Virus record (IMG/VR): IMGVR_UViG_3300047539_000055
Reading direction: 5' to 3' (one strand)
Length of the DNA: 64,000 bases
Origin: a virus
Taxonomy: Duplodnaviria; Caudoviricetes
The notes beneath the pieces are model-generated. The model was not told the origin of the DNA. It did not search any database and saw only the letters and a list, made by a program, of their open reading frames with translations. Position numbers and translations under genes: made by a program. Of the stretch, positions 10,477 to 62,555 are shown piece by piece (position 1 is the stretch's first letter; the number at the start of each line of letters is the position of its first letter).

Positions 10477-13137
10477 TTAGACCTCTGCGAAGAAGTCATC
10501 AAATGTGTTTACCTTTCGTGTTGAACTTGAAATGGATTTCCAATTTTTTAGCTTACCAAATAGATTTTCAATCTTCTTGTCTACAACAGCCGCCATCATA
10601 CTTTCGTTGTCAAATGGCAAACTCTTAAACCAGTTTGGAAGATAAATTTCATCAATTGGATATGCTATAGAAGTCATATTCATTGTGTTGGCTTTGAGTG
10701 GACAGATAACGCACTTCATACCGTCCACTATACGAGTATGAACTTTATCGTGATTGATTTCACGAAGAACATTCCAATTAATTGCCGCCCGAACATGACC
10801 TGGTACACGATTGCCTTTACCCTTGGCAATCATCTCTGTATAATTTGTAATCTTGTTTACTCGCTTAGGAGTGCCTTGCTCTGGCAACGGCAACTCACTA
10901 AATGTTTTCTTGAAATCATTGATCATAGTGACAATGGTTTTTTCTGTGCCATTCGTCAGTAATTCCATCAAAATTGATTTGAGAAATTTCTGACATACAA
11001 CTGGAGTGTCGGCTCGTCTTAAATCCAAACCCATTGCCTTGAGTTTTGGTTCCTTGAGATACTTTACATCATCTTTCCAATAATTTAGAATTGCATATCT
11101 TTTCTTAGTAATGTATAACGCTTTCGTTCCAACACTTTCACATGAACCACGAATCAGACTGCCAAAATTTTCTGGGCAGTTGAAATTCTTTTTCATAAAT
11201 TCTGGAAATGATTCATTGACTTTATCACCAATTGCAGTATACAATGCCACAGCCGTTTCCTTATTCCATTCGGTTTCTTTGGCTTCAACAAGTGGTTTCA
11301 TCATCGGCCAAGCAGAAAATTGACTTGAATCTGTATCAATGGCAATAATAGCATCACCTTCAATTTCATACTTTCCTGTAATACACTCATTGACAGATGA
11401 ATTCATATGCTTACAAATAAGTTTCCCAGTCAACGTAATGGATTGTCCAACTCTTTTATCGTTGAATCTTGAGGCTGGGTTCGTCAGCGCTCCGTATCCA
11501 GAATTTTGCAAAATCTTTTGAACTTGCTGTCTCTGATCGTAAAACTTTCTCAGTTCTACATCAGTTGTTTCACCAAGTTTTTTCTGATATTCTTTTCTAA
11601 CTCTATACCATTCTGCAAATACACTTGGAACCAACGCATCACGACCATAAGTAAAAATTGTGCCATTACCACTTATCATCCATGGTTGACCACTTTCAAA
11701 AATCAATTCATAGCATTGACTTGCTGTAAGTGTGTCGCTCTTACCAGAAGTTTCCCAATCAATAACTAAATCAATACCTTCGCGACGATCCATTACTGCC
11801 TGATATTCAATGGAACCAAACACACCTTCCCAAGCTTGAGCAAAAGTATTTCCACTGGCTATCTTTTCAGAAATAAATTGATCTGTCAATTCTGGACGTA
11901 ATTGACCAACGATTGTTTCCACTCCCATATTCAAAGCACGAAGAGAACTTGGATACAGGCCGTTGATATCAATTACTCCAACCCAATCATGAATACCAGC
12001 TTTTGGTTGAGCAACGTGGGCACCAGCGATTCCATCTTCAGAATCCGCACCATAATTCTTGCTTTTATTTGGAACGATCAAACCTAAATCATGCGCTCTA
12101 TTGATTACTGCTTGATCAAATACCGCAACTGTGCCGAGACAATTGGGCAACAGAGTGGTTGTATTATGAGCGATTTCATTCATCAAAGAGAGAAGTTTGA
12201 GTTTGTCTTCCAACAAATGTAAAAGCGTTACATCTTGTCTGCTATACTCCAAAAACTTTTCAAAATCTTCATTGTATAATTTGTCTAAACTTCCGGCGTA
12301 AGGTGTTTTACTTTGCTTCAATTCATATTCCGCAATTGAATTCAAAGCATAACTATGTCGTTCTTCATATGTAAATTTTCTATAAGCATCCATCAAATCA
12401 ATATGAGTGCGCCCAATTAGTTCATAAGTTTTGAAAACTTTTCCATACTTTTCAACTTCTTTTTCTTTTGGCTTCTCACCCCATAAGCAAAGTTTACGAG
12501 TGTCATCTTTACTCATAATACGAGCGATACGATTTACCAAATATGGAATATCAAATCCTTCGCTGTTCCATCCAGAAACAACATCAACATCTTCAAGTAA
12601 ATCCAAGGTTGTGCTAATCAATTCCACTTCGTTATCAAATACCATCGTATTTTCAAACTTTGCGGCTATTGTATTTGCTTTCTCCATAGTAAGCGTGTGG
12701 GGGCGCAGAGACAGAGTGATCAATTCTTGTGTCCATTGATGATAAATTGTAATTGCAGTAATTGATGAAAATGGATCGTCAATGGGAGCGTAGCCTTTAT
12801 CAGTATTGAAATCAACTTCAATATCAAAAAATGCTATATGTAATTCAGGCGGTTCTTGGTGACGATAATACTGTGCCAAACATTTGAAAACAGGATTCAA
12901 ATCTGATTCCCATATTCGTTTGTTGTTGACACTGTTTAGCTCTTTATGAAACTCGGCTGTTGATCTTGGTTCAATTTTAGAGACAGGAGTATTATAGATT
13001 GAATAGTATTTTCCATTCGCATCATCAATGTAAAATGAGTGATCAATGGGAAAACTGTTATATACCCTTTTACCATTTACTCTTTCAACTACATCAATTT
13101 TTTCGGTTTTTTTATTACTCCGCGCAGAAGTGTACAT
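10477..13137 (-). CDS. Family B DNA polymerase (gp43-like)
   Basis: Exonuclease motifs FDIE, GWNSEGFD, Y..QD; polymerase motifs DINGLYPS, KILQNSGYG, DTDS, KKRY. Confidence 0.97.
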   Translation of the reverse strand: MYTSARSNKKTEKIDVVERVNGKRVYNSFPIDHSFYIDDANGKYYSIYNTPVSKIEPRSTAEFHKELNSVNNKRIWESDLNPVFKCLAQYYRHQEPPELHIAFFDIEVDFNTDKGYAPIDDPFSSITAITIYHQWTQELITLSLRPHTLTMEKANTIAAKFENTMVFDNEVELISTTLDLLEDVDVVSGWNSEGFDIPYLVNRIARIMSKDDTRKLCLWGEKPKEKEVEKYGKVFKTYELIGRTHIDLMDAYRKFTYEERHSYALNSIAEYELKQSKTPYAGSLDKLYNEDFEKFLEYSRQDVTLLHLLEDKLKLLSLMNEIAHNTTTLLPNCLGTVAVFDQAVINRAHDLGLIVPNKSKNYGADSEDGIAGAHVAQPKAGIHDWVGVIDINGLYPSSLRALNMGVETIVGQLRPELTDQFISEKIASGNTFAQAWEGVFGSIEYQAVMDRREGIDLVIDWETSGKSDTLTASQCYELIFESGQPWMISGNGTIFTYGRDALVPSVFAEWYRVRKEYQKKLGETTDVELRKFYDQRQQVQKILQNSGYGALTNPASRFNDKRVGQSITLTGKLICKHMNSSVNECITGKYEIEGDAIIAIDTDSSQFSAWPMMKPLVEAKETEWNKETAVALYTAIGDKVNESFPEFMKKNFNCPENFGSLIRGSCESVGTKALYITKKRYAILNYWKDDVKYLKEPKLKAMGLDLRRADTPVVCQKFLKSILMELLTNGTEKTIVTMINDFKKTFSELPLPEQGTPKRVNKITNYTEMIAKGKGNRVPGHVRAAINWNVLREINHDKVHTRIVDGMKCVICPLKANTMNMTSIAYPIDEIYLPNWFKSLPFDNESMMAAVVDKKIENLFGKLKNWKSISSSTRKVNTFDDFFAEV

Positions 13138-13629: not shown

Positions 13630-14190
13630 TCAAATTATTTCTTTTATTGGTTGCTTATACGGTCTTCGTTTCATATATTCTATTGCATTAATACTTGCTT
13701 CTTCGGGAAATTTATCAAGTGATGCGAGCAATATATTGTGATCGTAACATATCTCTCCCCGATAATTATTTGGATTAATTTTCTGTCCATCATGATAGTG
13801 ATCTGAGTTAAGGCTATTTGATTGAATCAAGCAATTAGGAAATTGACAAATCTTTATTGATCCTATTTCTTTGAGTTGATTTATTGTAAAACTTCCTTTT
13901 AGAAAATGTCTAGTTGAAAACCCACATTCCTTACACTTAGATTTTATTCTTCTATGTTCACACATCTGAGAACCACCGCATTCTTTACAATAACTTTTTA
14001 TTCTTTTATGTTCACATATAGATTTACCGCCGCATTCCTTACAATAATTTTTTTGTCTTCCGTGTTCACATATCTGAGAACCACCACACTCTTTACAACT
14101 GGATTTTCGTCTTCCATGTTCACATATCTGAGAACCACCGCATTCTTTACATTGGGATTTTAGTCTTTCATGTTTACATTTTTTATTCAT
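13630..14190 (-). CDS. Zn-finger repeat (CEH..K..CKECGG x5) + EndoVII-like His-Me nuclease, putative homing endonuclease
   Basis: 18-aa (54-bp) repeats; C-terminal 'C....C.....L.SDHYH......RGEIC..HN'; SD GAGG before ATG 14190. Confidence 0.75.
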   Translation of the reverse strand: MNKKCKHERLKSQCKECGGSQICEHGRRKSSCKECGGSQICEHGRQKNYCKECGGKSICEHKRIKSYCKECGGSQMCEHRRIKSKCKECGFSTRHFLKGSFTINQLKEIGSIKICQFPNCLIQSNSLNSDHYHDGQKINPNNYRGEICYDHNILLASLDKFPEEASINAIEYMKRRPYKQPIKEII

Positions 14191-14212
14191 ATAATACCTC
14201 ATAAAATAATTT

Positions 14213-14704: not shown

Positions 14705-15556
14705 TCAATCGTCTGCATCTCGCTCTTGTTTCATATCGGCGGCGGTCCATAATGGCACTTTTCCTAGCAATGTCAAATGGTCAGATTTGAACCACGCAGT
14801 GCTTTCGCAATCATAACCATAGGTAAAATCTGAAAATCCATCGTATGAAGAACGACCAAAATTATAATGATGAACGCAATCAAAATGACGAGCGATATGT
14901 TGCCACGGAAAATCTTTCTGTAACAAATAACCAGAATCAAATCCTATCTCCCTTATCCTTTTCCATTCTTCGGGATCAGCATACGCCGTATTTTCCCTTC
15001 CAAGAGTAGCAAACATTTCATACATACATTTGGCATCATTTGTGGAATCAATTTCACATACTGTAGTGCCTGGCTTTACATCATAAAGATAGCCAAGTTG
15101 TCCTTGACCTTTCATTTTATCTGGTAATCCTCCCTCTTGAACAAAATCATTCCAAGAACTTGTCCATTTTCCATTTGATTTTTCTTTTGCTGTGCTTGTC
15201 CATAAGGCAGAATTAGTAGGTTTTTGTCCACCGACATTTGGAGTAGTGTTAACCAAAATTGGAGCGCCTTCAAACATAATACTTTCGTTGGCTAAATCAA
15301 TCATTCGTTGATATTCTGGTTTAAGATTTCCTTCATCGTCATACGCATATTGAGCGCGGTTTTGAAAAATATAATCAGAAAATTCTTTTTTAGTGTGATA
15401 ACTTTCTACTTTTCTTGGAACAAAAAGTTGCTTCGTTCCATTTGGCATTTTTGTCATCCCTTGCTCTTTATAATATTCAAGCATCTCTCGTTCGCGTTCC
15501 ACAGGATCATATGGAGCCACAACTTTCTTTCGTCTTGTCAATTCTGTAAGTCTCAT
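14705..15556 (-). CDS. Putative internal head protein of unknown function
   Basis: MRLTEL leader; internal IMFE|G linker before a 'KP...LWTS...W...YDCEST' domain. Confidence 0.6.
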   Translation of the reverse strand: MRLTELTRRKKVVAPYDPVEREREMLEYYKEQGMTKMPNGTKQLFVPRKVESYHTKKEFSDYIFQNRAQYAYDDEGNLKPEYQRMIDLANESIMFEGAPILVNTTPNVGGQKPTNSALWTSTAKEKSNGKWTSSWNDFVQEGGLPDKMKGQGQLGYLYDVKPGTTVCEIDSTNDAKCMYEMFATLGRENTAYADPEEWKRIREIGFDSGYLLQKDFPWQHIARHFDCVHHYNFGRSSYDGFSDFTYGYDCESTAWFKSDHLTLLGKVPLWTAADMKQERDADD

Positions 15557-16899
15557 AATTCTACGCTATTAACTCTATGTACTTTCTTGTGACAGGGTTC
15601 ACAAAGAGTAAGTCCATTATCAATATCAAATCTAAGTTCTGGATATTTAGCAAATTCTTTAATATGATGAGCATGGAGGAATCCAGTTGCTTTACAATCC
15701 ATACATTTATATTCATCCCGCTTAAAAACAGATTTTCTCCAATTTTGATATTCTTCACTTTTTCTTATAAGAGCATTGGCACTTGCTTTAAAGCCATCCC
15801 ATTCACTTTCTGTAATTCCTTGTAAAGTACAACTTATCTTTTTACGAGTTGCTTCTCGTTTTGTTTGTTCTCCTGGCAAATAACAACTTTCCAATCCTAA
15901 TTTAATTGCCTTCAGTCTAATGGCATCATGTGTTTTCCCCAATATTTCTGATATCTCTTTAAAAGTTTTGGTTTCTGATAATTCGATAAGATTTTCTATT
16001 TCACTATTTGTCCAAATACGATCTCTTCTTTTAATATTTCTATATCGCATTGATCTTATAATATTTGCGCCTGTGCAACCAAGTTCTTTTCCAATCTGTT
16101 CTGATCCTTTCTTTTTCCCCCAATATTCACAATATAACCATGATCTATTACTAATTGGTTTTTCATCTTCTTTTAAACTTTGACCAGCCATAAGAACTTG
16201 TTCTAAAATATTCTTTCCAACAGACTGACCAATTGATTCGTGTAAAATCATCGCATTATTTTGTATACAGTGACCGCCGATTCCACCAGGATAATCTTTC
16301 AACACCGGCCGTTGAACATTTTTCATACCAAGAGATGCATATCCAGAATTATAGCTTTTATTTGCTTGCGTGTAAACCAAATCAAAATCTAAACCAAGTT
16401 GATCACAATACGCTTTGACCGCTTTTTCAAAAACTATATTCCAACCATAATAAGTGGTATCCCACAACTTCATCGCTTCTGTGGTTTCTGATTTTGGAGT
16501 GGTTACACAATCAATACCAAGCTTTCTAAAAACAACAGCCGCTTCTTCTGCTCTTGCTCCACCAAAATATTTGGTGAAGGTATAAATTCCACTAACCAAA
16601 TGTGGATGAACTCCACGAATCGGAGAATGCACAGCATTGAAATAAGATGAAGTGCTAACATCCACAGTGGAATGGATAATTACCAATCCATCCTTGGTAA
16701 GATATTTATCAAGATATTTTTGAACTGCGTCTACAAATTCATCATTGAAAGGAATACAGATATGAATAATGCTGAATTTAGCTGATATTGGTAATACCCC
16801 AATATCCAGCCCTTCAACTTTTAGAAATTGTCCTTCGGATAGCACAGTTATTAATGCCTTACCAACTTGACCTTTACTACCAATTACGAGATGGCTCAT
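15553..16899 (-). CDS. Nucleotide-sugar (UDP-glucose/GDP-mannose type) dehydrogenase-like domain fused to HTH + HNH endonuclease
   Basis: GxxGxVG Rossmann fold, IHST, HSP, E..KL..T, GGIGGHC catalytic motif; C-terminal WRKSVFKRDEYKC..C....LHAHH.........R.DIDNGLTLC..CH. Confidence 0.85.
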   Translation of the reverse strand: MSHLVIGSKGQVGKALITVLSEGQFLKVEGLDIGVLPISAKFSIIHICIPFNDEFVDAVQKYLDKYLTKDGLVIIHSTVDVSTSSYFNAVHSPIRGVHPHLVSGIYTFTKYFGGARAEEAAVVFRKLGIDCVTTPKSETTEAMKLWDTTYYGWNIVFEKAVKAYCDQLGLDFDLVYTQANKSYNSGYASLGMKNVQRPVLKDYPGGIGGHCIQNNAMILHESIGQSVGKNILEQVLMAGQSLKEDEKPISNRSWLYCEYWGKKKGSEQIGKELGCTGANIIRSMRYRNIKRRDRIWTNSEIENLIELSETKTFKEISEILGKTHDAIRLKAIKLGLESCYLPGEQTKREATRKKISCTLQGITESEWDGFKASANALIRKSEEYQNWRKSVFKRDEYKCMDCKATGFLHAHHIKEFAKYPELRFDIDNGLTLCEPCHKKVHRVNSVEL

Positions 16900-16908
16900 A
16901 TAATATCC

Positions 16909-17703
16909 TTATACAAATTTGCTAAATGCTTCTTGTAATGCAGAAGTTAGTCCACCATCCTTTTCACATGGTAATGAACAAAATTGTTGATCTACACTAT
17001 GTACATTTTTGAAAGTATTCTGACAAGATGGACACACTTTTTTAGTGGCGTGACTTGCATTTTGAAATTCCTTATATGATAGCACCTTTCTTGTCTTTTC
17101 ATTTTTTGACTCACGCCAAAACGCCATAGCTGGACTATAGGAACGAACGGGTTCTGGTTCTGCCATTGTTGCCCAATTTTGTATTTCTTCTTTTACTTCA
17201 TCTTTTTTTCCCTCCCAACTTGGATATAATGGTGGAACTGAATATTCCACAGTAAACCAATCACCGGGGGTTCTAATTTCCAATGCGGCAAAAACTCTTT
17301 GTAAAGTTGCTTCATCCTTATTAGCAAATTCAATTACTGTATGAGCATATCCAACTGTTCCTGCAAAACGAACTCTAACAGTTCCACTTAAAAGACTAGG
17401 ATCATCATGCATTCGTGCAACTACATCACGCAACTCATAATGCATTCTACCAACATAAACATGATTTTTGGGAGTAATCAAAGCGGCAGGGTGATCTATG
17501 TTAACTTTTTTAAGTTTTGCAAATTGGTTACGTGTGGCTTCATCCAAAACTTCTCTATCGCCAATTTCTGGCGTAATGCCACAGCCAAAAAATTTCTTAC
17601 TCAGAGTTCCTTTCTTTGGATTCCCACCAAGCACAGGGCCGACAGATGCAACTTTATCAGTTGCTCTTAGTGTTCCAGGTTTAGATGACTTTTTCTTTTT
17701 CAT
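16909..17703 (-). CDS. Putative head-associated protein with C-terminal Zn finger
   Basis: Basic N-terminus, VLDE|A linker, CPSC...FCSLPC. Confidence 0.6.
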   Translation of the reverse strand: MKKKKSSKPGTLRATDKVASVGPVLGGNPKKGTLSKKFFGCGITPEIGDREVLDEATRNQFAKLKKVNIDHPAALITPKNHVYVGRMHYELRDVVARMHDDPSLLSGTVRVRFAGTVGYAHTVIEFANKDEATLQRVFAALEIRTPGDWFTVEYSVPPLYPSWEGKKDEVKEEIQNWATMAEPEPVRSYSPAMAFWRESKNEKTRKVLSYKEFQNASHATKKVCPSCQNTFKNVHSVDQQFCSLPCEKDGGLTSALQEAFSKFV

Positions 17704-19094
17704 TAGTTTGACACCACGCTTATTTTGAAATCTTTAACTGTAAGTCTTGGTCTGAGTGAAAGTGGTAATTCTATTTTATATCTCTCAAAACTTCCCACCG
17801 CATAAACTACATCATCTCTAGTTTCCACATCTGCAACAATATATCTACGCTCCAACGTATAATTTATTTTTCTAACCAAGACATATAATGCGGCTCCTCT
17901 TTCTTCACTTTTACGATTAAAATAATTATATCCGATTGTTTTTGCCGCTAAACGAATCCCTTCCTTTACTGCATCAAGAAGTTTCGTACCTGGTTTGAAA
18001 TCGTATCGTTGCTTATCAAAAGTTTCAATATGCCAATTTGGAAATTCTTTTTCAAATGCTTCTTTCACATCATAAGTAAAATGTTCTCGTACATCTGTTG
18101 GCATAACATACATTGATTTGGTCTTCGGATCAAGTTTCAAATACCCGCGATCATAACTATCAAAATGGGGTGCAAATCCACCTGTCATTCGTCTCTTATT
18201 TATAATGTCATGAAATCGAGTGGTATGCATTGCATAATGTCCTTTACGAATTGTCAATCCATATGTTGGATAATAAATCCATAGATATGTTCCAAACCTT
18301 GTTGTATCTTCTACACCCTCGACTACTCGCTTCGCTGGACTCCTCTTTGCAGTCCAAGGAACCACCACAAAGTTATTGCTTCTAATTCCTGGTCGCAAAT
18401 TTTCTGGCGGCGTAACCACATACTTTTCGTATGTTCCTTTTACCAAAAGAGAGTTACCAAGTCGTGTTATCTTTGCCACAATATATCTACCAGCCAATCT
18501 TTGCGCAATTTCCTTCTTCAATAGTTCCAAACGCTCAAGAGAATCACTTTTTTCGAAAGTACCACCTGGCGGATCAAATCTTATAGACATACGAGCCAAA
18601 TCAATGTATTCATCAATTCCATCTATAATTGCCTCTTTTACCGCCCCCATTGGTTTCCAATTATCTCCTTTATAGGAATCAAACTTGACAATCTCCCAAT
18701 TTGGAAATGTTTTTTTGAATATCTTCTCCATTGGATGTGCAAAAAATTCGTGAACATCTGTTGGATAGAAATACAATACATGATTATCTACATCGGTTTG
18801 AGCATATCCTCTATCAAAATCATCATAATCAGTATCAGACTGATTCATTATGTTACCAAAAACTCTGCCGTGGGCCGCGTAATTTCCTTCACCAATGAGC
18901 AATCCTACAGTTGGATCATAAATCCATACATACTTTCCAGTAAATCTTGGATTACTAATATCTGCATTACGCCATTTAGCAAGCGCTTCGTTCTTGGCAG
19001 GTTCATATAAACCTCGTGTATGGACAGGTTCATTAGTCTCTATCCATTCATCATCACCAGACGAGTTAGATTGCCAAAATTCTTGTAACAGCAT
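17703..19094 (-). CDS. Putative internal head protein made of a tandem duplicated ~200-aa unit
   Basis: MLLQEF leader; two copies of 'RF.....WIY.P..GL....G.YA.H...DRGY...PTDV.E.F...FPNW.I..FD...AVKE'. Confidence 0.7.
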   Translation of the reverse strand: MLLQEFWQSNSSGDDEWIETNEPVHTRGLYEPAKNEALAKWRNADISNPRFTGKYVWIYDPTVGLLIGEGNYAAHGRVFGNIMNQSDTDYDDFDRGYAQTDVDNHVLYFYPTDVHEFFAHPMEKIFKKTFPNWEIVKFDSYKGDNWKPMGAVKEAIIDGIDEYIDLARMSIRFDPPGGTFEKSDSLERLELLKKEIAQRLAGRYIVAKITRLGNSLLVKGTYEKYVVTPPENLRPGIRSNNFVVVPWTAKRSPAKRVVEGVEDTTRFGTYLWIYYPTYGLTIRKGHYAMHTTRFHDIINKRRMTGGFAPHFDSYDRGYLKLDPKTKSMYVMPTDVREHFTYDVKEAFEKEFPNWHIETFDKQRYDFKPGTKLLDAVKEGIRLAAKTIGYNYFNRKSEERGAALYVLVRKINYTLERRYIVADVETRDDVVYAVGSFERYKIELPLSLRPRLTVKDFKISVVSN

Positions 19095-19106
19095 TTCAAT
19101 TCCTCT

Positions 19107-19307
19107 TTATGTTCTTTTGATCAACGTAGGACTAACGGTTTTACGATCTTTTCTATTCTTTTTGATTGTGCTATATATTGAAGAGGCTGGATCACCGCCA
19201 AAAAATTGACCTTTTGGTGGGGTTCCGCCAGCAATCGTGGTTCCCATATTTCCGGCCGAAGTTGACCCTCCAGATGATGTTTCTTGAATGATTTCAGAAA
19301 TTCTCAT
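19107..19307 (-). CDS. Small head protein (E|TSSGGSTSAGN type)
   Basis: MRISEIIQE leader, SD AAGGTG, TAAATA at 19321-19326. Confidence 0.7.
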   Translation of the reverse strand: MRISEIIQETSSGGSTSAGNMGTTIAGGTPPKGQFFGGDPASSIYSTIKKNRKDRKTVSPTLIKRT

Positions 19308-19349
19308 AGTTCACCTTCAGTATTTACCAATCTTTTGAGATTTCCAAGA

Positions 19350-21110
19350 TTATTTTCCTTGTAAATCAATTCTGAAATAACTATCACCGTCAGAATCTTT
19401 CAATTTTTTCACTGAATATCTTTTAGCCAATTTTTCCCACGCCGATTTAGCATACAGTGATCTTGTAAAATCACTAACAATATAAGAATATCCAGCTTTT
19501 TTGGCTTCATGAATCATTCTATCGTATAGCATTTGACCAAGACCAGTATTATGCCAGTTACCTCTTTCTGTTAATTTACTTGTAGTTATTTGAATGCCAT
19601 TGAGTTCTATACACGAAATGTCTCCACAACTATCAGATTTCATTGGGCGAGCTATTATTACCCCTTCACTAAAACCAGAAATATTATTTTTATCAATTGC
19701 TCTAATTTCTATACCATTTTCGTCACTTTTTACTTTCCACGTCAACTTTGAAATCTCGGCATCACGATCATTGTAATGACGATAACCGAAATCTGGAGAC
19801 TCAGCCACTTTTATTCTGCTCAAGACAATATAAAAATATGAATGAGGAATGTATGTATGTGAATCTCTATATCGGACTGGATATCTCTTTCTCAACTTTT
19901 CCCATGCCTGATCAGCGTCATAACTTCGTGTAGTATCCGAACGAAATTCTCTACAACCTTTTGACTTTGCCAAATCAATAGCCTTGTCATATAACATTTG
20001 TCCAAGACCAGTTCCTTTCCATTCCTTTACAATTTCGCTTCTCAAAACATTCATACTTGATGATGAGAATATAAAACTAAGAACCATTTTTCCAATTTCA
20101 TTATTTTCATTTATTGCTTCTATTATAAATGATTGATGATCTACATTCTTGGGGCCACTTCTTATATTAAACTTTACTGATGACAATTCTTTATCACGAT
20201 CATTGAATCGTGAATACCCAAAATCTGGAGACTCCTTCAATGGAATTTTTGTCAGGTCAATTCGATAAACTGTTTTCAATGCGTTTGCTGGGCCTTTCTT
20301 ATTTGGAACTTTTTCAACTGAATATCGTTGTCTCAATCTATCCCATGCACTTTCGGCATCACTTGTTCTGAAAAATCCAGACTCAAAATAATGATAACCC
20401 ATTTTCTTTGAGAGTTGAATTGCTTTATCATACAATATTTGACCAACGCCAGTTCCTTGCCATTCGCGAGTTATTTGAATTCGTGTAACTTCTATAACAT
20501 CATTATTTCCAAATGAAAAACAACGAATTTTTGTCCATGGATCATTTTGAATGTTAATCTCAAATCCAGGAGCATTTGGTGGTTCTCTTTCCACAACGAA
20601 TTTGATTTTCTTTATGTCCTTATCTCTGTTGTTGAATTGAGAGTAGCCAAAATCTGGAGACTCTCTCATAAAAAATTTCTTGACATTCATTGGATTATAT
20701 CGTTTTCTCGCTTCCCACGGAGCCTTCAAAAACATTTTGGATGACTTATAGATAAAAATATCTCGCGGAGTAAAAATTACATTTGAAACTTTGAAAAATT
20801 GTTCACGCTTTTCACTCCATCGTTCATATTTTCCAAACGGAATATCAATATCGTAACATTCTTTACCCATCCACGCTCTAACCCAATAATGATCGTTATC
20901 CTTATCAATAATAGATGTTTTTACGCCGAAAATATCATATTTAATACAGTTTGCCATGACTTTCGCAACATCATTACATAATCCATAAGAACCTCCCCAA
21001 TTATCATATTCCCATTGAACTTTTTGAACCACATAAGGCTTCAAGGCCATCAGCGCAGCCTTCAATGGTCGTTCAATAACGGATTCAGAAATCAAATCAT
21101 CAACAAACAT
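19350..21110 (-). CDS. Polyprotein: Cys-His-Asp (papain/transglutaminase-like) domain + three GNAT acetyltransferases
   Basis: GLC...HYWV...YDID triad; three acetyl-CoA motif-A copies (WQGTGVGQILY, WKGTGLGQMLY, WHNTGLGQMLY), each preceded by xE|SPDFGY. Confidence 0.85.
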   Translation of the reverse strand: MFVDDLISESVIERPLKAALMALKPYVVQKVQWEYDNWGGSYGLCNDVAKVMANCIKYDIFGVKTSIIDKDNDHYWVRAWMGKECYDIDIPFGKYERWSEKREQFFKVSNVIFTPRDIFIYKSSKMFLKAPWEARKRYNPMNVKKFFMRESPDFGYSQFNNRDKDIKKIKFVVEREPPNAPGFEINIQNDPWTKIRCFSFGNNDVIEVTRIQITREWQGTGVGQILYDKAIQLSKKMGYHYFESGFFRTSDAESAWDRLRQRYSVEKVPNKKGPANALKTVYRIDLTKIPLKESPDFGYSRFNDRDKELSSVKFNIRSGPKNVDHQSFIIEAINENNEIGKMVLSFIFSSSSMNVLRSEIVKEWKGTGLGQMLYDKAIDLAKSKGCREFRSDTTRSYDADQAWEKLRKRYPVRYRDSHTYIPHSYFYIVLSRIKVAESPDFGYRHYNDRDAEISKLTWKVKSDENGIEIRAIDKNNISGFSEGVIIARPMKSDSCGDISCIELNGIQITTSKLTERGNWHNTGLGQMLYDRMIHEAKKAGYSYIVSDFTRSLYAKSAWEKLAKRYSVKKLKDSDGDSYFRIDLQGK

Positions 21111-21111
21111 T

Positions 21112-21993
21112 TTACCACATACCCCTTCTTAGTTTTAGTTGTTTTCCATCCCATTGAAATGCTTGATAGTATTCGGTTCCAGAACCAGTCTTCAATTCAA
21201 AATCTACTAAGTCTGATATTCTCTTCATCTCCCTAATAGTAAAACTTTCCAGTTTTGGAGACATTTTTTGTATAGTTTCAAAATAAGAAAACCCCTCATG
21301 AACAACTACACGAAGCAACCCTGCTTTATACGCATCCTCATAATCATGAAAGAAACCCATCATCTTAGCAGTTCCTAAATGTGTTCTTTCATATCCATTT
21401 GGAACAAATCTACCACTTGGAAATAACCAACCATGACCATTGATCGGCGCAGTTTTACTACCAACCCTTTTTATAAACTCGGAAGATCGCCATTTTTCAA
21501 TGGCCCATTTGTCAACTGCTTTCTTTGCGGGTGAATTGAAATCTTCATAAACGTTACGTTGTCGTCTTTGTGGAACTAACTGTCTTCCATCCCAATCAAA
21601 TCTTTTTTGAAAGCCAGTTCCAGAGCCACTCACAAATTCTAATCCATAACCTTTAGGAAACCTTTTTATGGCCTTCAAAACAATCTTTTCCAATTCTGGA
21701 GACATACGTTTGTCGGTTTCTAAATAAGCTTCGCCGTCGCCGCCTCTACCAAATCCCATAAATGCTACACGAAGTAATCCAGCAGTAAAGGCTTCATCAT
21801 ACCCACGACCATATCCCATTTTGTCGGCCATCGCTACATGACTTCTTCCTCCATTTGAAATAAATGTTCCATCTGGAAATAACCATCCTTGATCAGTAAT
21901 CGGCACAGTTTTACTTCCATACTTCTTCTTATACTCAAGAGGAGTAGGAGGTTTCTGCCGATAAACTTCGGGAATGAAATCTTCAATCAGCAT
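21112..21993 (-). CDS. Putative internal head protein with two GWLFPxG domains
   Basis: MLIEDF leader; two homologous units separated by NVYE|DFNSPAKKA. Confidence 0.75.
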   Translation of the reverse strand: MLIEDFIPEVYRQKPPTPLEYKKKYGSKTVPITDQGWLFPDGTFISNGGRSHVAMADKMGYGRGYDEAFTAGLLRVAFMGFGRGGDGEAYLETDKRMSPELEKIVLKAIKRFPKGYGLEFVSGSGTGFQKRFDWDGRQLVPQRRQRNVYEDFNSPAKKAVDKWAIEKWRSSEFIKRVGSKTAPINGHGWLFPSGRFVPNGYERTHLGTAKMMGFFHDYEDAYKAGLLRVVVHEGFSYFETIQKMSPKLESFTIREMKRISDLVDFELKTGSGTEYYQAFQWDGKQLKLRRGMW

Positions 21994-21994
21994 T

Positions 21995-24900
21995 TTACCA
22001 CGCCCTTCGGTTCTGTGAAACTAATTGTTTACCATCCCAATTAAATCTTTTATAAAATGGAGAACCTGAACCGCTAATAAGAGTTGCATCTTGGGAACTG
22101 CGCATTCTTTTGATTGCTTTTATGACAAGATTTTCCAATCTTGGTGACATTTGTTGTGACGTTTCAAATTGATGAATATATATTGACAAACGAATCAAAC
22201 CTGCTTCATACGCCGCATCATATCCATATTTGAATCCCATTTTAAGGGCTGTCGTTACATGACCTCTTGTTATTCCATTTGGAACAAAAGTTCCATTTGG
22301 CAATAACCAACCATCATCATCAATCGGGGATGTTTTACTACCATTTCTTTTTATAAAGGCTACGCCACTTGCTTTCGTAGCGGGTGTATCGTAGGATTCA
22401 AATATATGATTTGCGGCGAATCTTCCACCACGCGGCGGAATCAAAGAATCTTCAACCGGAACGTAAGCCATGATATCTTTGTCACCACGTAGATAGGCAG
22501 CATAGGCGCGATGATGCCCATCTACAATTGGGCTATCATCATCCCAATAATCGCGAGGCTGAAGAATAACCGGAGGAAGTGGTGTTAATCGACTCCCATA
22601 CTCTTTGGCTTGCTCTTCACTGAAACAACCCTCTTCAGCCCGAATCAAATCAAGAGGTACCTTCTTAAGCTCGTACCAATCAGCTTGGAGAAGATGATTA
22701 ACTTGCTCAGGTGTGACTGAGTGATGCCACAGAGACGCCAGATGCTTTGCTACGTCATCACGGCTAATTAGGGATGATGCCGTATGAACGAAAAAACTGT
22801 GTCTTGCTTTCGTAGCGGGTGAACCGTAGGATTCATACATATTACGTCGTTTTGCGTTCCGAACAAATTCTTTACCAGTCCATTCATATTCATCATTTCC
22901 AAAACTTTCACCACATAAAAGAAAAATATTTGGAAACGAAGACTGAATATCTGTGGCTATCTTTTCTGATCTTTTGCAAACCCGTTCATATGGTAAAATA
23001 GTTTGAATAACACATTCTCCTCTCCCTTGACAAGAAACATGAAGCCATCCTTTGCGCCAAGCAGATGTATAAGTTTTAATACCAGCCTTTTTCAAAGTAT
23101 TCCAATGTCCTTCCCCTGGCGCATTTGGAATAAACTTTCCTGTTGGCAATAACCAACCATCCTGACCAACTTGTTGTACGGAGATGCCTTCATTTATGGA
23201 CTCATCCCTTCGTCTATAAGTATCAAAATATCTACCATTCCATTCAAGTGTCTTCTTTTTGAAACCTGACTCTCCCCATATTGACAATATAATGCTTGGA
23301 TACTTTTGTGCCAAGCGTGTACGAACTACATTCATTAATTTTTTACTATTTTCTGTTCCAACTGTTGTAGTATCTAACTCAACAGTAGTTCTATTCAGGA
23401 TATATAAATGAATCCATCCCTCCTTATATGCTTCTTTATAAGAATCCATACCATGATCACGAAGTATCATAAGATGATTAGATAATCTAAAATTGAGTGG
23501 TATAAACTTTCCACTGGGTAGTATCCAACCATCATCGTTGATTTGATTATCAACGGCTTCCGTCACTGGTTCTTTTGGAATATATAATTTTCCTGTTTTT
23601 ATATTTCCTACTAGAGAATATTTGAATCTATCGCCAGTATATATTGTAATAAAGTTGTTTCCATAAATCCCATTAATACGATTAGCAATTTGTAGCCACT
23701 TTGGGCCGTGACCGTCTATATCTACTTCTTCTGTACCTGATCCATCATCGTCATCATCATTTTTAGACCAATTCGGTTCAGACTCCTCATCTTCTATATC
23801 TGGTTTCTCATTGTCAAGCCAACGCGGGAATATATTATTTAAAAAATCTTCAACATGGCACAATTCATGAGCCAAAACAGATTTATAAATAAACGCATCT
23901 CTTGCCGCATCTGGATTGATTCCTACATACAAGGTATGATTAATTGCCCAATAAGTAACACCCAAACAATACTTTTTCATTTTTACTGAATGTATCCCTA
24001 TTGGTGGAACTTTACTAATTTTGAAATGTGATAACAATTCATGAAGAATGTCATCTCTTTCTGCTTGAGAAAGAATAGCCTTACGAAACATTCCAGCGTT
24101 GGCTCTATATCCATCTTCCGTTATTGAGTGTCCTTCAAAAATTTGGTTCAAATTTTCTTTAACTTCTACAAGTTCAGAAAAATTATATATATCATTTGCC
24201 TCTTGAATCGGAACCCCAAGTCTTTTAGCAGCCTTCTTCATAAGAATCATAACATCCTTATCGCTAATAGAAGAATTCATCGCTGATCGCCATATTTGAA
24301 TTTTTTGCTGGACGGTTGCTTGTGGATCACGAAGAATATCTCTCATTGGTGTAGCTCGTGGTCCTGCCTCGGTACTACTTGGGTCACCAGTTTCTTGGCG
24401 GCTAATGACATCAATCTTGTCAAATGAAAAGGGAATTTCCCCTTTGTTATTTGATACTCCGTTATATTTTTTTACGTAACTCAATGCGTTAACTTGATCT
24501 TCACCAACTACTACCGTTAATTGGGTATATCCCATTTCTTGTAATTTACGAAGAACGCGAGTTAAATCTGGCATTTCGTCTGTTGCTGCAAAAAATATTT
24601 TCTTTTGGGACGGAAAAACCTTACGATAGATGGCAAGTTTTTCTCTGGGAGTAATTGGATCATCCTTCCCCATGGTACGACTTACTACGAAGTACGGATC
24701 GCCTCCCATTTTCTTCGCTTGAGTAAGAACACTGCTGGCAAGAAACATATGTCCTTTATGTCCCATACCTCTTCCCCATCCAAGCACAGCAATTTTGCTA
24801 TTACCAGTTCGTTGCAAATCCTCTTGAAGACGATCAGCCTTCATTTTTGGATTCCAATTTTTTTGATCAATAGCTTTAATGAATTGACCGGGAAGATCAT

Positions 24901-26689
24901 ACTTAAATTTTTTATCAGAATGAGCTTGAACATATCCCTCTGGATTTGTTTGACGAATACCGCCATGAGTTCCTTGTGCCAAAACACTAAGCAACTTATA
25001 TTTTTCTGCCGTAAGCATTTCCATAGCAGCAAAAATTGCTTTCAATCCTGGATGATCCAACATTTTTTTAGTTTTTTCAGCACTAAGATTTTTAGCAGCC
25101 CAAGCTATAAATTGTTTAGTAACTTGTTCTACACGAAAATTTTGATTGAAAAATTTGTATAATATATCGCCGGGACGAGACAACCCCGGCTGACCAGCAA
25201 CAAAAGAATCAATGATTTTAGCGTTCTTACTGATAAAAGCTGCAACTTTATCCAATCCCTTTATATCAATTTTAGGAATTGATTCTACATATGTTGTTCC
25301 CACGACGAGAACATCATCTGATGATAATTTTGAAACATTTGGATATCTTTCTTCATCTGCTCCAATATATTTGTAATAGCCAGTAGCGGCGATCATTACT
25401 TTTGCTTTTGAAATCCGTTGACCAAGTTCAGAGTCAGCAGGAACATGAAATTCTGTAACATTTGGCTTAAAATCCCACTCATTCGTTTTAGGATTTAATG
25501 TTGCAGGATCACCGGGCCAAAATAACAATCCACCTTCAATAAATCCTTTCTTTGGACTTATCTTTTCAAAATAGCTCCATAATTTAGATAAATTTTGAGC
25601 GTATTTTTGACGAAGTAATTCTTGACCTTGTTCAACATTTCCAGTAGTAGCAATAAATTTTTCTACATCTTTTGAACTACCCAGCAAAGTTTGAACTCCA
25701 CCCTTAGTAGTTTGAACTCCTCTTTTGAGATATTCCACCGCATTCTTAGGTAACATATGAAACTTGCCAGTATCATCACGGCCCCAATATAAAACTGGGC
25801 TTCCATCCATTTTTAATTCTATACCCTTTCCTTCACTACTCATCTCCTTCAATCGTTCAACAGCATGAAGTCCACCAATGCTACCATTGGTAAAAACTAA
25901 ATCTTCAATATGTTGATATTTGCGACCCACCTGGGGGGCAGCCGCCTCTGTAATCGGACGAACAGCATCCCATCGTTCATAACTGTAAGCCAAATCAACC
26001 ATCGCTCGTTTTTGTGCTGGATCGGGTATAGCAGCAATAATACTTTCAACACTACCAAGATCAGATGCTTTAGCGTTTGAACCGATTAAATAGTGAGCAA
26101 TTTCGTTTAAGTCGTCGGTAATGAAACTTGATTTCTTTCCATCGGAATCTCGCATAAAAAGACCTTCATCAGAACTCCAAACGAAACCTTGGCTTGTTGC
26201 CAATGCATTAATAAGTAATTGCTTATGTAAACCTTTAAACGGACTATTTTTAGGAAGGATATGTGTATGAAACAATCTGATGCGTTCTGCATTTTTTACA
26301 GGCTTAATATCAACTTGATAAAATTTACCTTTAAATGGAAGCAAAATATGAACTGTAATTCCAGTTTTTCTGGTCTTTAATCCCTTTTGTTGAAGATATT
26401 GCTCAAATTTTTGACGAATTATTTTTGAATCAGAAATTTTGAAAGTATTTTCCAAGTGAGTTAGATCAACTAAAACATCTAAATCTCCGCTCATTTTTCC
26501 GCTGGTGGGTGTGGCTGCACTACCAATTACGTAAGCTTGTAAACCAATATCATGAAGATACCTATCAGTTTCAGCTACCAATTGAGAAGCAATGACTTGA
26601 TCAAAATGACTACTTTCTGGCCAAATATTACCGCCTTCAAATAGTGTTGTACTTCTCCAAGCATGATTATACAAGTCATTTAATAGCAT
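21995..26689 (-). CDS. 1564-aa polyvalent polyprotein: PolB-like NTase, ligase-like (KxDG), HxGH nucleotidyltransferase, SprT-like peptidase, GWxxPxG x2, ParB/Srx-like, GWxxPxG
   Basis: GS...SGDLDV..QVD; ELKMDGSP...EGYV; GRGMGHKGH...VVGED...ATPMR; AHELCH...GHGPKW; IVDGHHR; TAAATA at 26698-26703. Confidence 0.85.
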   Translation of the reverse strand: MLLNDLYNHAWRSTTLFEGGNIWPESSHFDQVIASQLVAETDRYLHDIGLQAYVIGSAATPTSGKMSGDLDVLVDLTHLENTFKISDSKIIRQKFEQYLQQKGLKTRKTGITVHILLPFKGKFYQVDIKPVKNAERIRLFHTHILPKNSPFKGLHKQLLINALATSQGFVWSSDEGLFMRDSDGKKSSFITDDLNEIAHYLIGSNAKASDLGSVESIIAAIPDPAQKRAMVDLAYSYERWDAVRPITEAAAPQVGRKYQHIEDLVFTNGSIGGLHAVERLKEMSSEGKGIELKMDGSPVLYWGRDDTGKFHMLPKNAVEYLKRGVQTTKGGVQTLLGSSKDVEKFIATTGNVEQGQELLRQKYAQNLSKLWSYFEKISPKKGFIEGGLLFWPGDPATLNPKTNEWDFKPNVTEFHVPADSELGQRISKAKVMIAATGYYKYIGADEERYPNVSKLSSDDVLVVGTTYVESIPKIDIKGLDKVAAFISKNAKIIDSFVAGQPGLSRPGDILYKFFNQNFRVEQVTKQFIAWAAKNLSAEKTKKMLDHPGLKAIFAAMEMLTAEKYKLLSVLAQGTHGGIRQTNPEGYVQAHSDKKFKYDLPGQFIKAIDQKNWNPKMKADRLQEDLQRTGNSKIAVLGWGRGMGHKGHMFLASSVLTQAKKMGGDPYFVVSRTMGKDDPITPREKLAIYRKVFPSQKKIFFAATDEMPDLTRVLRKLQEMGYTQLTVVVGEDQVNALSYVKKYNGVSNNKGEIPFSFDKIDVISRQETGDPSSTEAGPRATPMRDILRDPQATVQQKIQIWRSAMNSSISDKDVMILMKKAAKRLGVPIQEANDIYNFSELVEVKENLNQIFEGHSITEDGYRANAGMFRKAILSQAERDDILHELLSHFKISKVPPIGIHSVKMKKYCLGVTYWAINHTLYVGINPDAARDAFIYKSVLAHELCHVEDFLNNIFPRWLDNEKPDIEDEESEPNWSKNDDDDDGSGTEEVDIDGHGPKWLQIANRINGIYGNNFITIYTGDRFKYSLVGNIKTGKLYIPKEPVTEAVDNQINDDGWILPSGKFIPLNFRLSNHLMILRDHGMDSYKEAYKEGWIHLYILNRTTVELDTTTVGTENSKKLMNVVRTRLAQKYPSIILSIWGESGFKKKTLEWNGRYFDTYRRRDESINEGISVQQVGQDGWLLPTGKFIPNAPGEGHWNTLKKAGIKTYTSAWRKGWLHVSCQGRGECVIQTILPYERVCKRSEKIATDIQSSFPNIFLLCGESFGNDEYEWTGKEFVRNAKRRNMYESYGSPATKARHSFFVHTASSLISRDDVAKHLASLWHHSVTPEQVNHLLQADWYELKKVPLDLIRAEEGCFSEEQAKEYGSRLTPLPPVILQPRDYWDDDSPIVDGHHRAYAAYLRGDKDIMAYVPVEDSLIPPRGGRFAANHIFESYDTPATKASGVAFIKRNGSKTSPIDDDGWLLPNGTFVPNGITRGHVTTALKMGFKYGYDAAYEAGLIRLSIYIHQFETSQQMSPRLENLVIKAIKRMRSSQDATLISGSGSPFYKRFNWDGKQLVSQNRRAW

Positions 26690-26709
26690 AGTATGAGTAT
26701 TTATTCAAA

Positions 26710-27285
26710 CTACTCTATATGTTGTTCCCTTTGATCTAACGACACATCGGAAGCCTTGACAGCTTCAATTTTTTTGATTATTGCAGGGTTAAAAATCACA
26801 ACGATGGTTTCAGCCCTTCCAGCAAAACCACGAGATATTTCATAATCGGCACCGTGATTTACAATAAACTTTCTCAATTCAACCGTATTTTTTGGTGACA
26901 AACATTGATAATTTACACAAAGGTTAACCAACACTTCAAGAAATAGCTTTCCAAGTCTGTTGATATTGTTCGTCAAATCTTCAATCATTGGCTTGCGATA
27001 CTGACCAATTACATATCGTTTAACAAAATCAATTGCTTCTTGTAACTCAATAGTGACTTTAGAAATATCTGTTCCCTTTTCAATTGTGAGTTTAAAAGTT
27101 GTTCCGCCGCCTTTGGCGTACTTTCTGGCAGTTTCATAATGAGTAGTGAGATATAAACCTGGGCCGTATTCCCATCGGCCTTTCTTAGCGGGAATCATAT
27201 TCATCTGATTGAATTGAAGATTTCTTCCACCATGCCAAAGGGTCATGGTTTGCGACACATCTTCAATTACTTCGTTTATCTTCAT
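26710..27285 (-). CDS. ADP-ribosyltransferase-like protein (H-Y-E type, polyvalent-protein ART)
   Basis: LWHGG, GPGLYLT, A.KYA and ETIVVIFNP motifs; MKINEVIE leader. Confidence 0.75.
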   Translation of the reverse strand: MKINEVIEDVSQTMTLWHGGRNLQFNQMNMIPAKKGRWEYGPGLYLTTHYETARKYAKGGGTTFKLTIEKGTDISKVTIELQEAIDFVKRYVIGQYRKPMIEDLTNNINRLGKLFLEVLVNLCVNYQCLSPKNTVELRKFIVNHGADYEISRGFAGRAETIVVIFNPAIIKKIEAVKASDVSLDQREQHIE

Positions 27286-27815
27286 GTGATTCCATATATC
27301 TTGTTAAGTTTGGAAATAACCTCTGGAAACCAAGCATTTTTGTAGAGTATTCCAATTCCGCCAGCCGCGTTCCATTTATTAATATTGTCAGGATGATCAT
27401 CAATCAAAATATTTGGTCTGCCTTTTGTAGTGGCGTATTTTTCTTTATCAAATTCATAAATTACTGGAATAACAGATACTCCATGCCGATGTAACCAAAT
27501 ATTTTTTCCAGCAATACAATCTTTTGTACCCGGTTCTCGTACAGGTCGGCTCAAAAAAGTAACTGGAATATACTGAGATAATATCCATCCCAACATACTC
27601 TTGCCATTACTTTCCCATTCCGCATTAGCAAAAAAGTCCTTAAGATTAGCTGTATTTAACACATTTGTCCAATACTTATTGTTGAATCCCAACAAATCAT
27701 ATTCTGCCAAGGATACATTATTGTATTCAGCGATAGCTTTATCAAGCCATACAACAACACCATCTAAATCCAAATATATTTTAGCGGGGTGATGTTCGAT
27801 TTCTTCTATTCTCAT
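27282..27815 (-). CDS. HAD-family 5'(3')-deoxyribonucleotidase (NT5C-like)
   Basis: YLDLDGV, K..W, ILIDD..DNI..W..AGGIGI motifs. Start at 27815 (MRIEEIE) is 5 nt after TAAATA. Confidence 0.88.
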   Translation of the reverse strand: MRIEEIEHHPAKIYLDLDGVVVWLDKAIAEYNNVSLAEYDLLGFNNKYWTNVLNTANLKDFFANAEWESNGKSMLGWILSQYIPVTFLSRPVREPGTKDCIAGKNIWLHRHGVSVIPVIYEFDKEKYATTKGRPNILIDDHPDNINKWNAAGGIGILYKNAWFPEVISKLNKIYGIT

Positions 27816-27904
27816 ATTCATATTTATTCCTTTGTGTTATAATAGAATTATATACTAATTACGCAGAATCTTCTGAAAAAAGATAAATAAAGAGGAGACA
27901 ACTT

Positions 27905-33408: not shown

Positions 33409-33449
33409 TTTTACCCTCAAGATAATAATACCATATAGTTACACAAATG

Positions 33450-34512: not shown

Positions 34513-34589
34513 ACCGATATTTATACTTTCGCGGCGGATTTTATTTAAAAGCAAATATATTTAAAAAACCTCTGGTTTCTCAAACAAAA

Positions 34590-46804: not shown

Positions 46805-46812
46805 ACTAATAT

Positions 46813-62540: not shown

Positions 62541-62555
62541 AGTAGTATTTATGTG

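Follow-up and report, generated by a model that had tools for sequence, protein, structure and literature searches.

The DNA analyzed here is a 64,000-nucleotide stretch (the window) of the tailed-phage record IMGVR_UViG_3300047539_000055 (Duplodnaviria; Caudoviricetes), in which positions 14705 to 27821 hold a block of ten minus-strand genes. Eight of them begin with variants of one short leader of hydrophobic and acidic residues. A sequence-only reading had taken this block for an arsenal of host-modifying enzymes, loaded into the phage head by means of the leader and matured there by the prohead protease. As a stand-in for the remainder of the genome, we used G001, a related 90-kb IMG/VR contig read as L001 and L006-L009; the ADP-ribosyltransferase (ART) genes of the window and L001 are 74% identical, and L001 carries a block syntenic with that of the window. 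The ten open reading frames named in the earlier reading, eight in the block and two outside it, were all found at their coordinates with the N termini reported for them. Features of the block, followed by the two outlying genes, are as follows, with ↓ marking a predicted cut.

14705-15556, minus strand: 283-residue protein with partial leader MRLTEL; no Pfam or PHROG family match.
15553-16899, minus strand: UDP-glucose-dehydrogenase-like domain and HNH endonuclease, no leader (HNH E 8.7e-7; UDPG_MGDP_dh E 1e-5; phrog_8446 E 3e-22).
16909-17703, minus strand: leaderless 264-residue protein with motif GGNPKKGTLSKKFFGC; its L001 homolog (18184-19380) is a tandem duplication.
17703-19094, minus strand: A-B-A-B protein of two domain types without an assigned family; partial leader MLLQEF; borders VKE↓A, VVE↓G and VKE↓G; internal repeats D5 and D16.
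19107-19307, minus strand: 66-residue basic protein, MRISEIIQE↓TSSGGSTSAGNMGTT; TAAATA 13 nt upstream; homologs P0171-P0173.
19350-21110, minus strand: 586-residue protein with a Cys/His N-terminal domain and three GNAT units; leader MFVDDLISE↓S; Pfam Acetyltransf_1 E 8e-12.
21112-21993, minus strand: two copies of domain X joined by NVYE↓DF; leader MLIEDFIPE↓V.
21995-26689, minus strand: 1564-residue multi-module protein; partial leader, with LFE↓G at residues 16-18; TAAATA 8 nt upstream.
22368-22407, minus strand: linker-coding repeat (..FE↓SYDTPATKA) of family D4; its copy at 22803-22842 is 90% identical, and the pair flanks the ParB-like module.
26710-27285, minus strand: stand-alone ART-fold protein of 191 residues (a likely assignment, from a model); full leader MKINEVIE↓D.
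27282-27821, minus strand: 5'-deoxyribonucleotidase (NT5C-like); partial leader; likely start 27815 (MRIEEIE); phrog_2643 E 1.4e-20; L001 ortholog starting MKITELKQ.
4998-5486, minus strand: Acb1 (anti-CBASS 2H phosphodiesterase) with an 18-residue N-terminal extension, starting MKLFSEFLVE↓E.
62929-63363, minus strand: 144-residue Pro/Thr-rich protein in the baseplate module; leader MRLHELFE↓SP, behind TAAATA; no family match.

Among the candidate cargo, the identities of the three GNAT units, Acb1, the NT5C-like nucleotidase, the NMNAT-like cytidylyltransferase and DUF6267 are secure, and those of the SprT-like zincin, the ParB/Srx-like module, the Pol-beta-type nucleotidyltransferase (NTase) and the ligase-like KxDG domain are tentative. 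The 1564-residue protein consists, in order, of an NTase-like domain, DUF6267 with KxDG (E 1.5e-15), the NMNAT-like cytidylyltransferase (phrog_3041 E 5e-22), the zincin, two copies of domain X, the ParB/Srx-like module and a further domain X. Pfam returned nothing for the NTase-like N-terminal domain and only DUF6267 for the second domain, and no PDB sequence came below E 0.08 when the segments for the NTase-like domain, DUF6267 and the cytidylyltransferase, or an ART profile, served as queries. The zincin (HELCH) scored E 0.0016, below the Pfam cut-off, and the ParB/Srx-like module shows a DGHHR motif and only a weak pairwise match (E 0.004). Of the module labels proposed earlier, GNAT and nucleotidase were supported, and NTase corresponds to a motif only, as does the ligase-like module; the zincin stayed below threshold and the ParB match was weak.

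For the 191-residue protein, an AF2 model built from 30 sequences reached a pLDDT of 89, with residues 1-9 below 50. Its Foldseek matches, of which only one had E below 0.001, comprised a pre-ejectosome chain from cyanophage A4 (E 4.6e-5), two toxins (cholix and diphtheria), AcrIF11, Tpt1 and PARP. Residues H18, G19, G20 and Y45 are invariant in the 30 homologs; Pfam gave only DUF3990 at E 0.0013, and the ART profile had no match among PDB sequences. The best structural match, PDB 9k3a_B, is part of that A4 chain, which has 1071 residues and is described as a capsid-internal ejection protein, whose alpha+beta domain its authors left unassigned (PMC12002296).

Domain X occurs in five copies in the window and four in L001. 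A model of the nine aligned copies (AF2, pLDDT 85) has both linker ends disordered; the domain matched no Pfam family and no convincing fold (best Foldseek E 0.03; best VIA-align Z 5.0, within the noise range of that tool), and a homolog search with the 293-residue protein encoded at 21112-21993 found just two close fragments. The three GNAT units of 19350-21110, each headed x-E↓SPDFGY (MRE↓S, LKE↓S and VAE↓S), have intact G-x-G-x-G motifs, and the L001 ortholog has five such units. The small leader proteins (window 19107-19307, L001 17021-17521 and P0171-P0173) have in common an invariant stretch, GGTPPKGQFFGGDPASSIY, to which the GGNPKKGTLSKKFFGC motif of the leaderless protein at 16909-17703, also present at L001 18184-19380, is related; this short linear motif is possibly a docking element. 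The dehydrogenase-HNH gene has no counterpart in the L001 block and is probably a mobile-looking insertion rather than cargo. In Acb1, the family model (PF23474, E 1.3e-21, 77.3 bits against a cut-off of 27) covers residues 19-155, leaving the leader and spacer outside it. Its 18 homologs all start MK[LST]F[SR][EDK][YF]L[AMKI]E and continue with a spacer that differs in length among them.

To assess leader frequency, we used a loose pattern in which M and 1-2 residues are followed by a hydrophobic residue, x, D/E and a further hydrophobic residue (M-x-[LIV]-x-[DE]-[LIVF] in short form). It matched 8 of 10 genes in the block (14705-27821, minus strand) but just 3 of the 43 genes in the rest of the window (Fisher p=7e-6), and 1.6% of internal Met sites fit it. 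The two block genes lacking it are 15553-16899 and 16909-17703. Adding a second acidic residue (a second hydrophobic-hydrophobic-x-acid) left four block genes, namely, 19107-19307, 19350-21110, 21112-21993 and 26710-27285, together with 4998-5486, 62929-63363 and 57762-58031 outside the block, the last a probable chance match. Because 14705-15556, 17703-19094, 21995-26689 and 27282-27821 fail this stricter pattern, their leaders are only partial. Six of the 10 named genes have an [L/I]-x-E by residue 10; at 14705, 17703, 21995 and 27282 it is absent or further in. The claim that eight block genes share a leader therefore stood as an enrichment, with about half of the leaders complete and four partial, and the motif is meaningful at the level of the cluster, not of the individual gene. 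In the syntenic block of L001, nine genes start with MKITELKQ, MKINEVIID, MKITELLED, MRLRHLFEA, MIIENFINE, MKIKELLQE, MKISELLKE, MKIKDIIRE and MRLIEMF.

The N-terminal likeness could in principle reflect chance or A+T-rich start regions, given that the loose pattern has a background of 7-11% and the genome a G+C content of 36%. Against this stand the clustering of the matches, retention of the leader in orthologs and in the 18 Acb1 homologs, and the behavior of the coding DNA: a degenerate DNA pattern for the leader had 7 matches in the 90-kb G001 contig and 0, 0 and 1 in the cultured Rak2-like phages CBB, K64-1 and Atu_ph07 (1.2 Mb in total). Among the leaders, residue classes are kept though codons vary, which places the signal at the protein level. 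We assign chance a negligible probability.

The leader resembles the T4 capsid-targeting sequence (CTS). The propeptide of T4 internal proteins (IPs) is MKTYQEFIAE (10.1101/2021.01.19.427310), in which targeting depends on residues 4 and 7 and processing on residues 8 and 10 (PMC9026906). Other proteins in the T4 record NC_000866 start MELITELFDE (Alt), MAKINELLRE (gp24), MLKEQLIAE (gp22), MLLIPE (gp68) and MEGLIE (gp67). In the block leaders MRISEIIQE↓T, MFVDDLISE↓S, MLIEDFIPE↓V and MKINEVIE↓D, a hydrophobic residue, Glu or Asp, a hydrophobic pair and Glu occupy the T4-equivalent places, one residue nearer the initiating Met, and the leader of Acb1, MKLFSEFLVE↓E, is in the T4 register exactly. 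Hydrophobic residues stand at the equivalents of T4 IPIII residues 4 and 7 in the leaders of 19107, 19350, 21112, 26710, 4998 and 62929 and of nine L001 genes. What may be a second leader type, also in the T4 register, was seen in the head module of G001 (L006 11775-13564), where three small Cys-rich proteins encoded between the prohead protease and scaffold genes start MPTILEEL, MKTLTETM and MHTLRELS.

G001 encodes a T4-type prohead protease (Peptidase_S77, PF03420, E 1.7e-24) and a gp23-type major capsid protein (PF07068, E 1.2e-95), in which LRE42↓S aligns with the T4 gp23 cut, LTE65↓A. Smith-Waterman comparison aligned residues 7-30 of the L001 small protein, LKE↓TASCGSTSAGSIATVNATGTP, to residues 40-63 of the G001 capsid protein, LRE↓SATTGSTSAGNIATLNRVILP; the core of the junction reads LKE↓TASCGSTSAGSIATVN (LKE↓TASCGSTSAG) in the former and LRE↓SATTGSTSAGNIATLN (LRE↓SATTGSTSAG) in the latter. 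The score of 67 was reached by 0 of 2000 shuffles (30.6 +/- 4.4, maximum 53). The window's 66-residue protein (IQE↓TSSGGSTSAGNMGT) scored 50 against the same capsid protein, a value reached by 5 of 2000 shuffles. By this alignment, the Glu that ends the leader sits at the expected capsid cut position. The scaffold-like protein of G001 contains 7.7 sites of this kind per 100 residues, compared to 1.5-5.2 in its neighbors.

Three TAAATA late promoters called in the earlier reading were confirmed on the minus strand at 19321-19326, 26698-26703 and 27821-27826. The hexamer precedes 19107-19307 (by 13 nt), 21995-26689 (8 nt), 27282-27815 and 62929-63363, as well as four leader genes of L001. In front of the window's baseplate and tail genes, and of the genes for capsid, scaffold, protease and sheath in G001, it stands at a distance of 5-27 nt. 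Replication genes have TTGACA-N17-TATAAT-like sites instead. A scan of the block for sigma-70-type promoters gave no enrichment (47 seen, 53 expected). As judged by promoter motif, the block genes would be expressed late. At the third promoter, TAAATA-N5-ATG (27813-27826) has the same spacing as at two baseplate/tail genes; this spacing fits the second ATG, and the nucleotidase gene therefore likely starts at 27815.

The TAAATA-N5-ATG arrangement was found exactly at gene starts at 27813-27826, 34510-34523, 46802-46815 and 62538-62551 (minus strand) in the window and at 9514, 10001 and 10596 in L001. Its number in the window, 4 versus 2.2 expected, is not above chance, and all four lie at coding-strand gene starts. 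A T4-like late promoter in this arrangement would start the transcript at the A of the start codon and so yield leaderless late mRNAs. Other late genes have TAAATA-N13-27 followed by a GAGG-type ribosome site.

Two genes next to the block, with counterparts adjoining the leader block of L001 (1277-4233), provide a different possible destination for the leader.

31111-33420: ClpA/B-like double AAA+ protein (phrog_4871 E 9e-201).
33450-34055: J-domain protein with an HPD motif.

The leader could be a tag for these proteins, in timed unfolding, degradation or assembly. Their adjacency in both phages is the sole link, such AAA+ genes have σ70-like promoters rather than TAAATA, and the internal linkers, the Glu-specific site and the mimicry of the capsid site would be left unexplained; we hold this to be very improbable.

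An indirect connection to virions was provided by the cytidylyltransferase. Mass spectrometry has revealed NMNAT-like cytidylyltransferases among the virion proteins of cyanophages S-SCSM1, S-CBWM1, S-SZBM1 and S-CREM2, in papers that make no mention of a targeting leader or cleavage (PMC9602691, PMC10665884). The S-SCSM1 protein, annotated as 'virion protein' and encoded within a run of virion-protein genes, starts MKSFLQFLKE↓AAES behind TAAATA and is 27% identical to the window module over 168 residues (E 7e-9). The module also matches cyanophage 'cytidylyltransferases', and the ACG-2014a homolog starts MKKFSAFLNE↓AERS. The cyanophage enzymes are homologous to the window module and have a leader in the T4 register (MKSFLQFLKE↓A, MKKFSAFLNE↓A) behind TAAATA; they differ in being single-enzyme proteins, the window module being internal to a 1564-residue chain.

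Inside the long proteins, domain borders had been placed at [LIVMF]-x-E, and all GNAT and domain X units counted bore this out. Each of the 8 GNAT units has the header [MLVFI]-x-E↓[SE]PD[FY][GN]Y directly at its front, and all 9 domain X units have a [hydrophobic]-x-E site 8-33 residues upstream. Units that are internal in one phage are separate in the other. The zincin, ParB-like and cytidylyltransferase modules, each behind a hydrophobic-x-E within the 1564-residue protein, correspond in L001 to separate genes with N-terminal leaders (zincin and ParB-like) and to the first module of a leader-bearing 838-residue polyprotein (cytidylyltransferase). The A and A+B units of 17703-19094 are likewise separate leader-bearing genes in L001; conversely, the 66-residue protein, which has its own gene in the window, is fused in L001 via PIKE↓G to a further domain. 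The natural C terminus of the ART protein, ...HIE, is at a Glu site, where a longer homolog (69% identical) runs on through ...ITE↓V into a ParB-like domain. Two C-terminal copies of domain X end in ...RGMW and ...RRAW, 2-3 residues before the Glu site, and fused copies run on through ...NVYE↓DF. By sequence, leader and inter-module linker are interchangeable. Since they appear to be the same element, modules could be fused, split and shuffled without loss of address or cut site.

The ART domain allowed this to be surveyed broadly. In an alignment of ART homologs, the leader is set apart from the first strand by a spacer that varies in length. Among 1.84 billion proteins, 489 cluster representatives contained an ART-like domain (E below 0.001), stand-alone or in chains of up to 4167 residues. 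A [LIVMFY]-x-E lay within 16 residues upstream of the domain in 77% of the 122 representatives with upstream sequence (background, 25%), comprising 40 of 56 internal and 54 of 66 N-terminal copies, with a peak 7-8 residues upstream. P3 was L or I in 73 of 94 sites (78%), and P1' was S > A > N. This preference is, from its residues, of the T4 gp21 type and not the phiKZ-like [S/A/G]-x-E. One leader-bearing ART homolog of another uncultured phage (L010 10949-13006) was seen to adjoin a diversity-generating retroelement (mtd, bAvd, reverse transcriptase).

Interchange of this kind could also mark a recombination joint and flexible connector, in which case the proteins would be ordinary cytoplasmic late or middle enzymes with no head targeting. 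DNA repeats do lie at the linkers (the 22368-22407 pair) and at a gene junction, where 'TGG TAA A ATG + leader' recurs (21084-21118 versus 21967-22001, 80% identity); module order is very unlike between the two related phages, and Acb1 and NT5C are not usual virion proteins. Yet the motif is kept in the protein across homologs of 35-45% identity without DNA identity, the leader resembles the T4 CTS at mapped functional positions, and one junction copies the capsid cleavage site. Late promoters on enzymes with early-acting relatives make sense mainly if the products are carried to the next cell, and a homologous leader-bearing NMNAT occurs in virions. We consider this explanation distinctly unlikely.

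The identity of the site also bears on the protease. In a second alternative, the products are packaged polyvalent proteins that are cut by their own peptidases (the SprT-like zincin or the Cys/His N-terminal domain) or remain uncut internally, with the prohead protease at most trimming the N terminus. Such self-processing has been proposed in print for polyvalent proteins and P1 DdrB (PMC5512222), the predicted ART, GNAT, ParB-like and 2H repertoire fits that class, and a HELCH zincin is present in the 1564-residue protein, with a separate gene in L001. The conserved site [L/I]-x-E↓[S/A], however, has the specificity of T4 gp21 and is of the same kind as the capsid site of the relative; the triple-GNAT, double domain X and A-B-A-B proteins have no zincin, and the zincin score is below the Pfam cut-off. 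Self-processing is, in our judgment, unlikely.

Several observations weigh against head cargo matured by the prohead protease. To our knowledge, there is no precedent for a prohead protease freeing a string of functional enzymes from one chain, and the zincin and possible Cys/His peptidase domain could cut instead. The prohead protease and capsid sequences are those of the relative G001, not the window's own genes. A [LIVMFY]-x-E occurs in a quarter of random 16-residue windows, and repeated modules are paralogs, so that their linkers are not independent observations. Four of the eight block leaders lack a second hydrophobic-x-Glu in the first ten residues, and among 37 T4 proteins that the protease does not process, 4 (gp19, UvsY, gp48 and gp54) also fit the loose pattern. 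The Acb1 gene belongs to an operon of replication genes and has no TAAATA immediately before it, and a tblastn search with the ART gene against 50,697 phage records found no cultured-phage homolog.

Overall, the proposal of a head-loaded, protease-matured arsenal is partly supported, through the likeness of the leader to the T4 sequence, the late promoters, the interchange of leaders and linkers predicted to be disordered, the copy of the capsid site and the homologous virion NMNAT. A T4-style cargo system is the simplest account of all features together. We favor, at somewhat better than even confidence, the interpretation that the block genes specify proteins that a T4-type jumbo phage carries in its head after trimming by a protease of the gp21 type; the phage probably ships ready-made host-modifying enzymes with its DNA.

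In the mechanism that we envisage, the propeptide M-[KR]-[IL]-x-[ED]-[LIFV]-[LIF]-x-E, amphipathic, acidic and CTS-like, would dock each protein on the scaffolding core late in infection. A gp21-type (S77) prohead protease would then cut after the Glu of [L/I/V/F]-x-E, taking off the leader, and would probably sever the disordered inter-module linkers of multi-module proteins as well. The head would thereby come to hold separate modules of 12-40 kDa, comprising the ART, GNATs, NMNAT-like, ParB-like, zincin and nucleotidase modules, many copies of domain X and the small basic protein. Small pieces would pass the tail more easily. At the next infection, the modules would exit with the DNA and may act before expression as anti-defense or takeover factors, by analogy with T4 Alt and Ip1-3 and with polyvalent proteins.

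A broader proposition, which we regard as possible at somewhat less than even odds, is that in T4-type phages beyond the T-even group one [L/I]-x-Glu peptide would be both address tag and cut site, with the prohead protease as a polyprotein processor yielding at least a dozen injected effectors, including Acb1, and with a basic protein that copies the capsid junction in the same cargo. If true, this lineage and many uncultured relatives would arrive armed, rewriting host proteins and nucleotides and disarming signaling immunity before phage transcription, which would change the idea of 'early' counter-defense. The T4 capsid-targeting principle would be widened from a few small inhibitors to modular enzyme arsenals, the prohead protease would gain a second job in polyprotein processing, and a simple sequence rule would become available to predict virion cargo in metagenomes.

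The remainder of the window, of 34-43% G+C, is coding nearly throughout and has no tRNA genes. Its other principal features are as follows.

10477-13137: family-B DNA polymerase.
36910-63363: T4-type baseplate and tail-fiber module, with a gp6-like wedge protein (phrog_10646 E 8e-243) and a gp25-like protein.

Compared with its counterparts in the jumbo myophages Rak2, K64-1, CBB and Atu_ph07, the wedge protein shows 29-33% identity. A nucleotide-level search of the window against cultured phages gave zero matches, and an exact 40-mer was absent from IMG/VR. Paralogous zinc-ribbon arrays were seen at 13630-14202 and 35483-36262, with repeats C-K-E-C-G-G-x-x-I-C-E-H-x-R followed by ICQFPNCL.QSN..LNSDH and a probable endonuclease-like tail. 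Signal-peptide-like N termini (e.g., MKKIILCILAIASVLMPISAQQ) occur in the proteins encoded at 9964-10464, 36284-36883, 54805-57747 and 58041-59009; together with the leaderless gene starts, they would fit a Bacteroidota-type host.

Among known systems, our literature search found no description of leader-tagged enzyme polyproteins punctuated by prohead-protease sites; the nearest are the T4 CTS with the IPs and Alt, the polyvalent proteins and the phiKZ-like propeptides. The phiKZ-like giant phages (phiKZ, 201phi2-1 and SPN3US; PMC5694885) have many head-internal proteins that are cut after Glu by a gp21-related protease and then ejected, and their ejection proteins, as here, form paralog families with common N termini. 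Their site is [S/A/G]-x-E and their propeptides mostly exceed 100 residues, whereas the sites here have L or I at P3 in 78% of cases and leaders have about 9-10 residues; the block does not fit a head propeptide system of the phiKZ type. By means of its Dar system (DarA, DarB, DdrB and Hdf), phage P1 loads its head with anti-restriction proteins, one of them of ParB-like/zincin type, and injects them. The cargo here is predicted from genes; P1 has no shared short leader, its incorporation hierarchy is unlike, and it is not T4-like.

Polyvalent proteins (Iyer et al. 2017, PMC5512222) are, like the present ones, strings of unrelated conflict-type domains among late genes; it has been suggested that they enter with the DNA and are divided into units by embedded peptidases. 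Of their typical repertoire (ART, DdrB-like ParB, MPTase zincin, GNAT and 2H), GNAT and 2H are clear here, the ART is supported by fold, and the zincin and ParB-like modules are tentative, as is the NTase-like domain. At least two unrelated effector-type domains among late or virion genes, a feature of that class, were found in the 1564- and 586-residue proteins, with baseplate and tail genes downstream. No shared leader or linker motif was described for polyvalent proteins; in the window and its relative, a module may have its own leader-bearing gene or stand inside a longer chain, behind a prohead-protease-type site.

The closest parallel is the T4 CTS with IPI-III and Alt, processed by gp21 (Mullaney and Black 1996; PMC9026906). 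Common to both are a short acidic and hydrophobic N-terminal propeptide, ending in [L/I]-x-E in the complete leaders here, an S77 prohead protease (here in the relative G001), late genes, hypervariable loci and a cargo with an ADP-ribosyltransferase and small basic proteins, predicted here from genes alone. Compared with T4, the typical leader of the window has one residue fewer (MKIxELIxE), the predicted cargo consists mostly of enzymes, many of them multi-module with the same motif between modules, and the predicted ART would be of the H-Y-E fold type, Alt being of the R-S-E type. The phage itself is a distant uncultured jumbo relative, with about 30% identity to Rak2-like baseplate proteins. 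We conclude that the system is probably the principle of T4 internal proteins and Alt combined with polyvalent proteins, in a new form.

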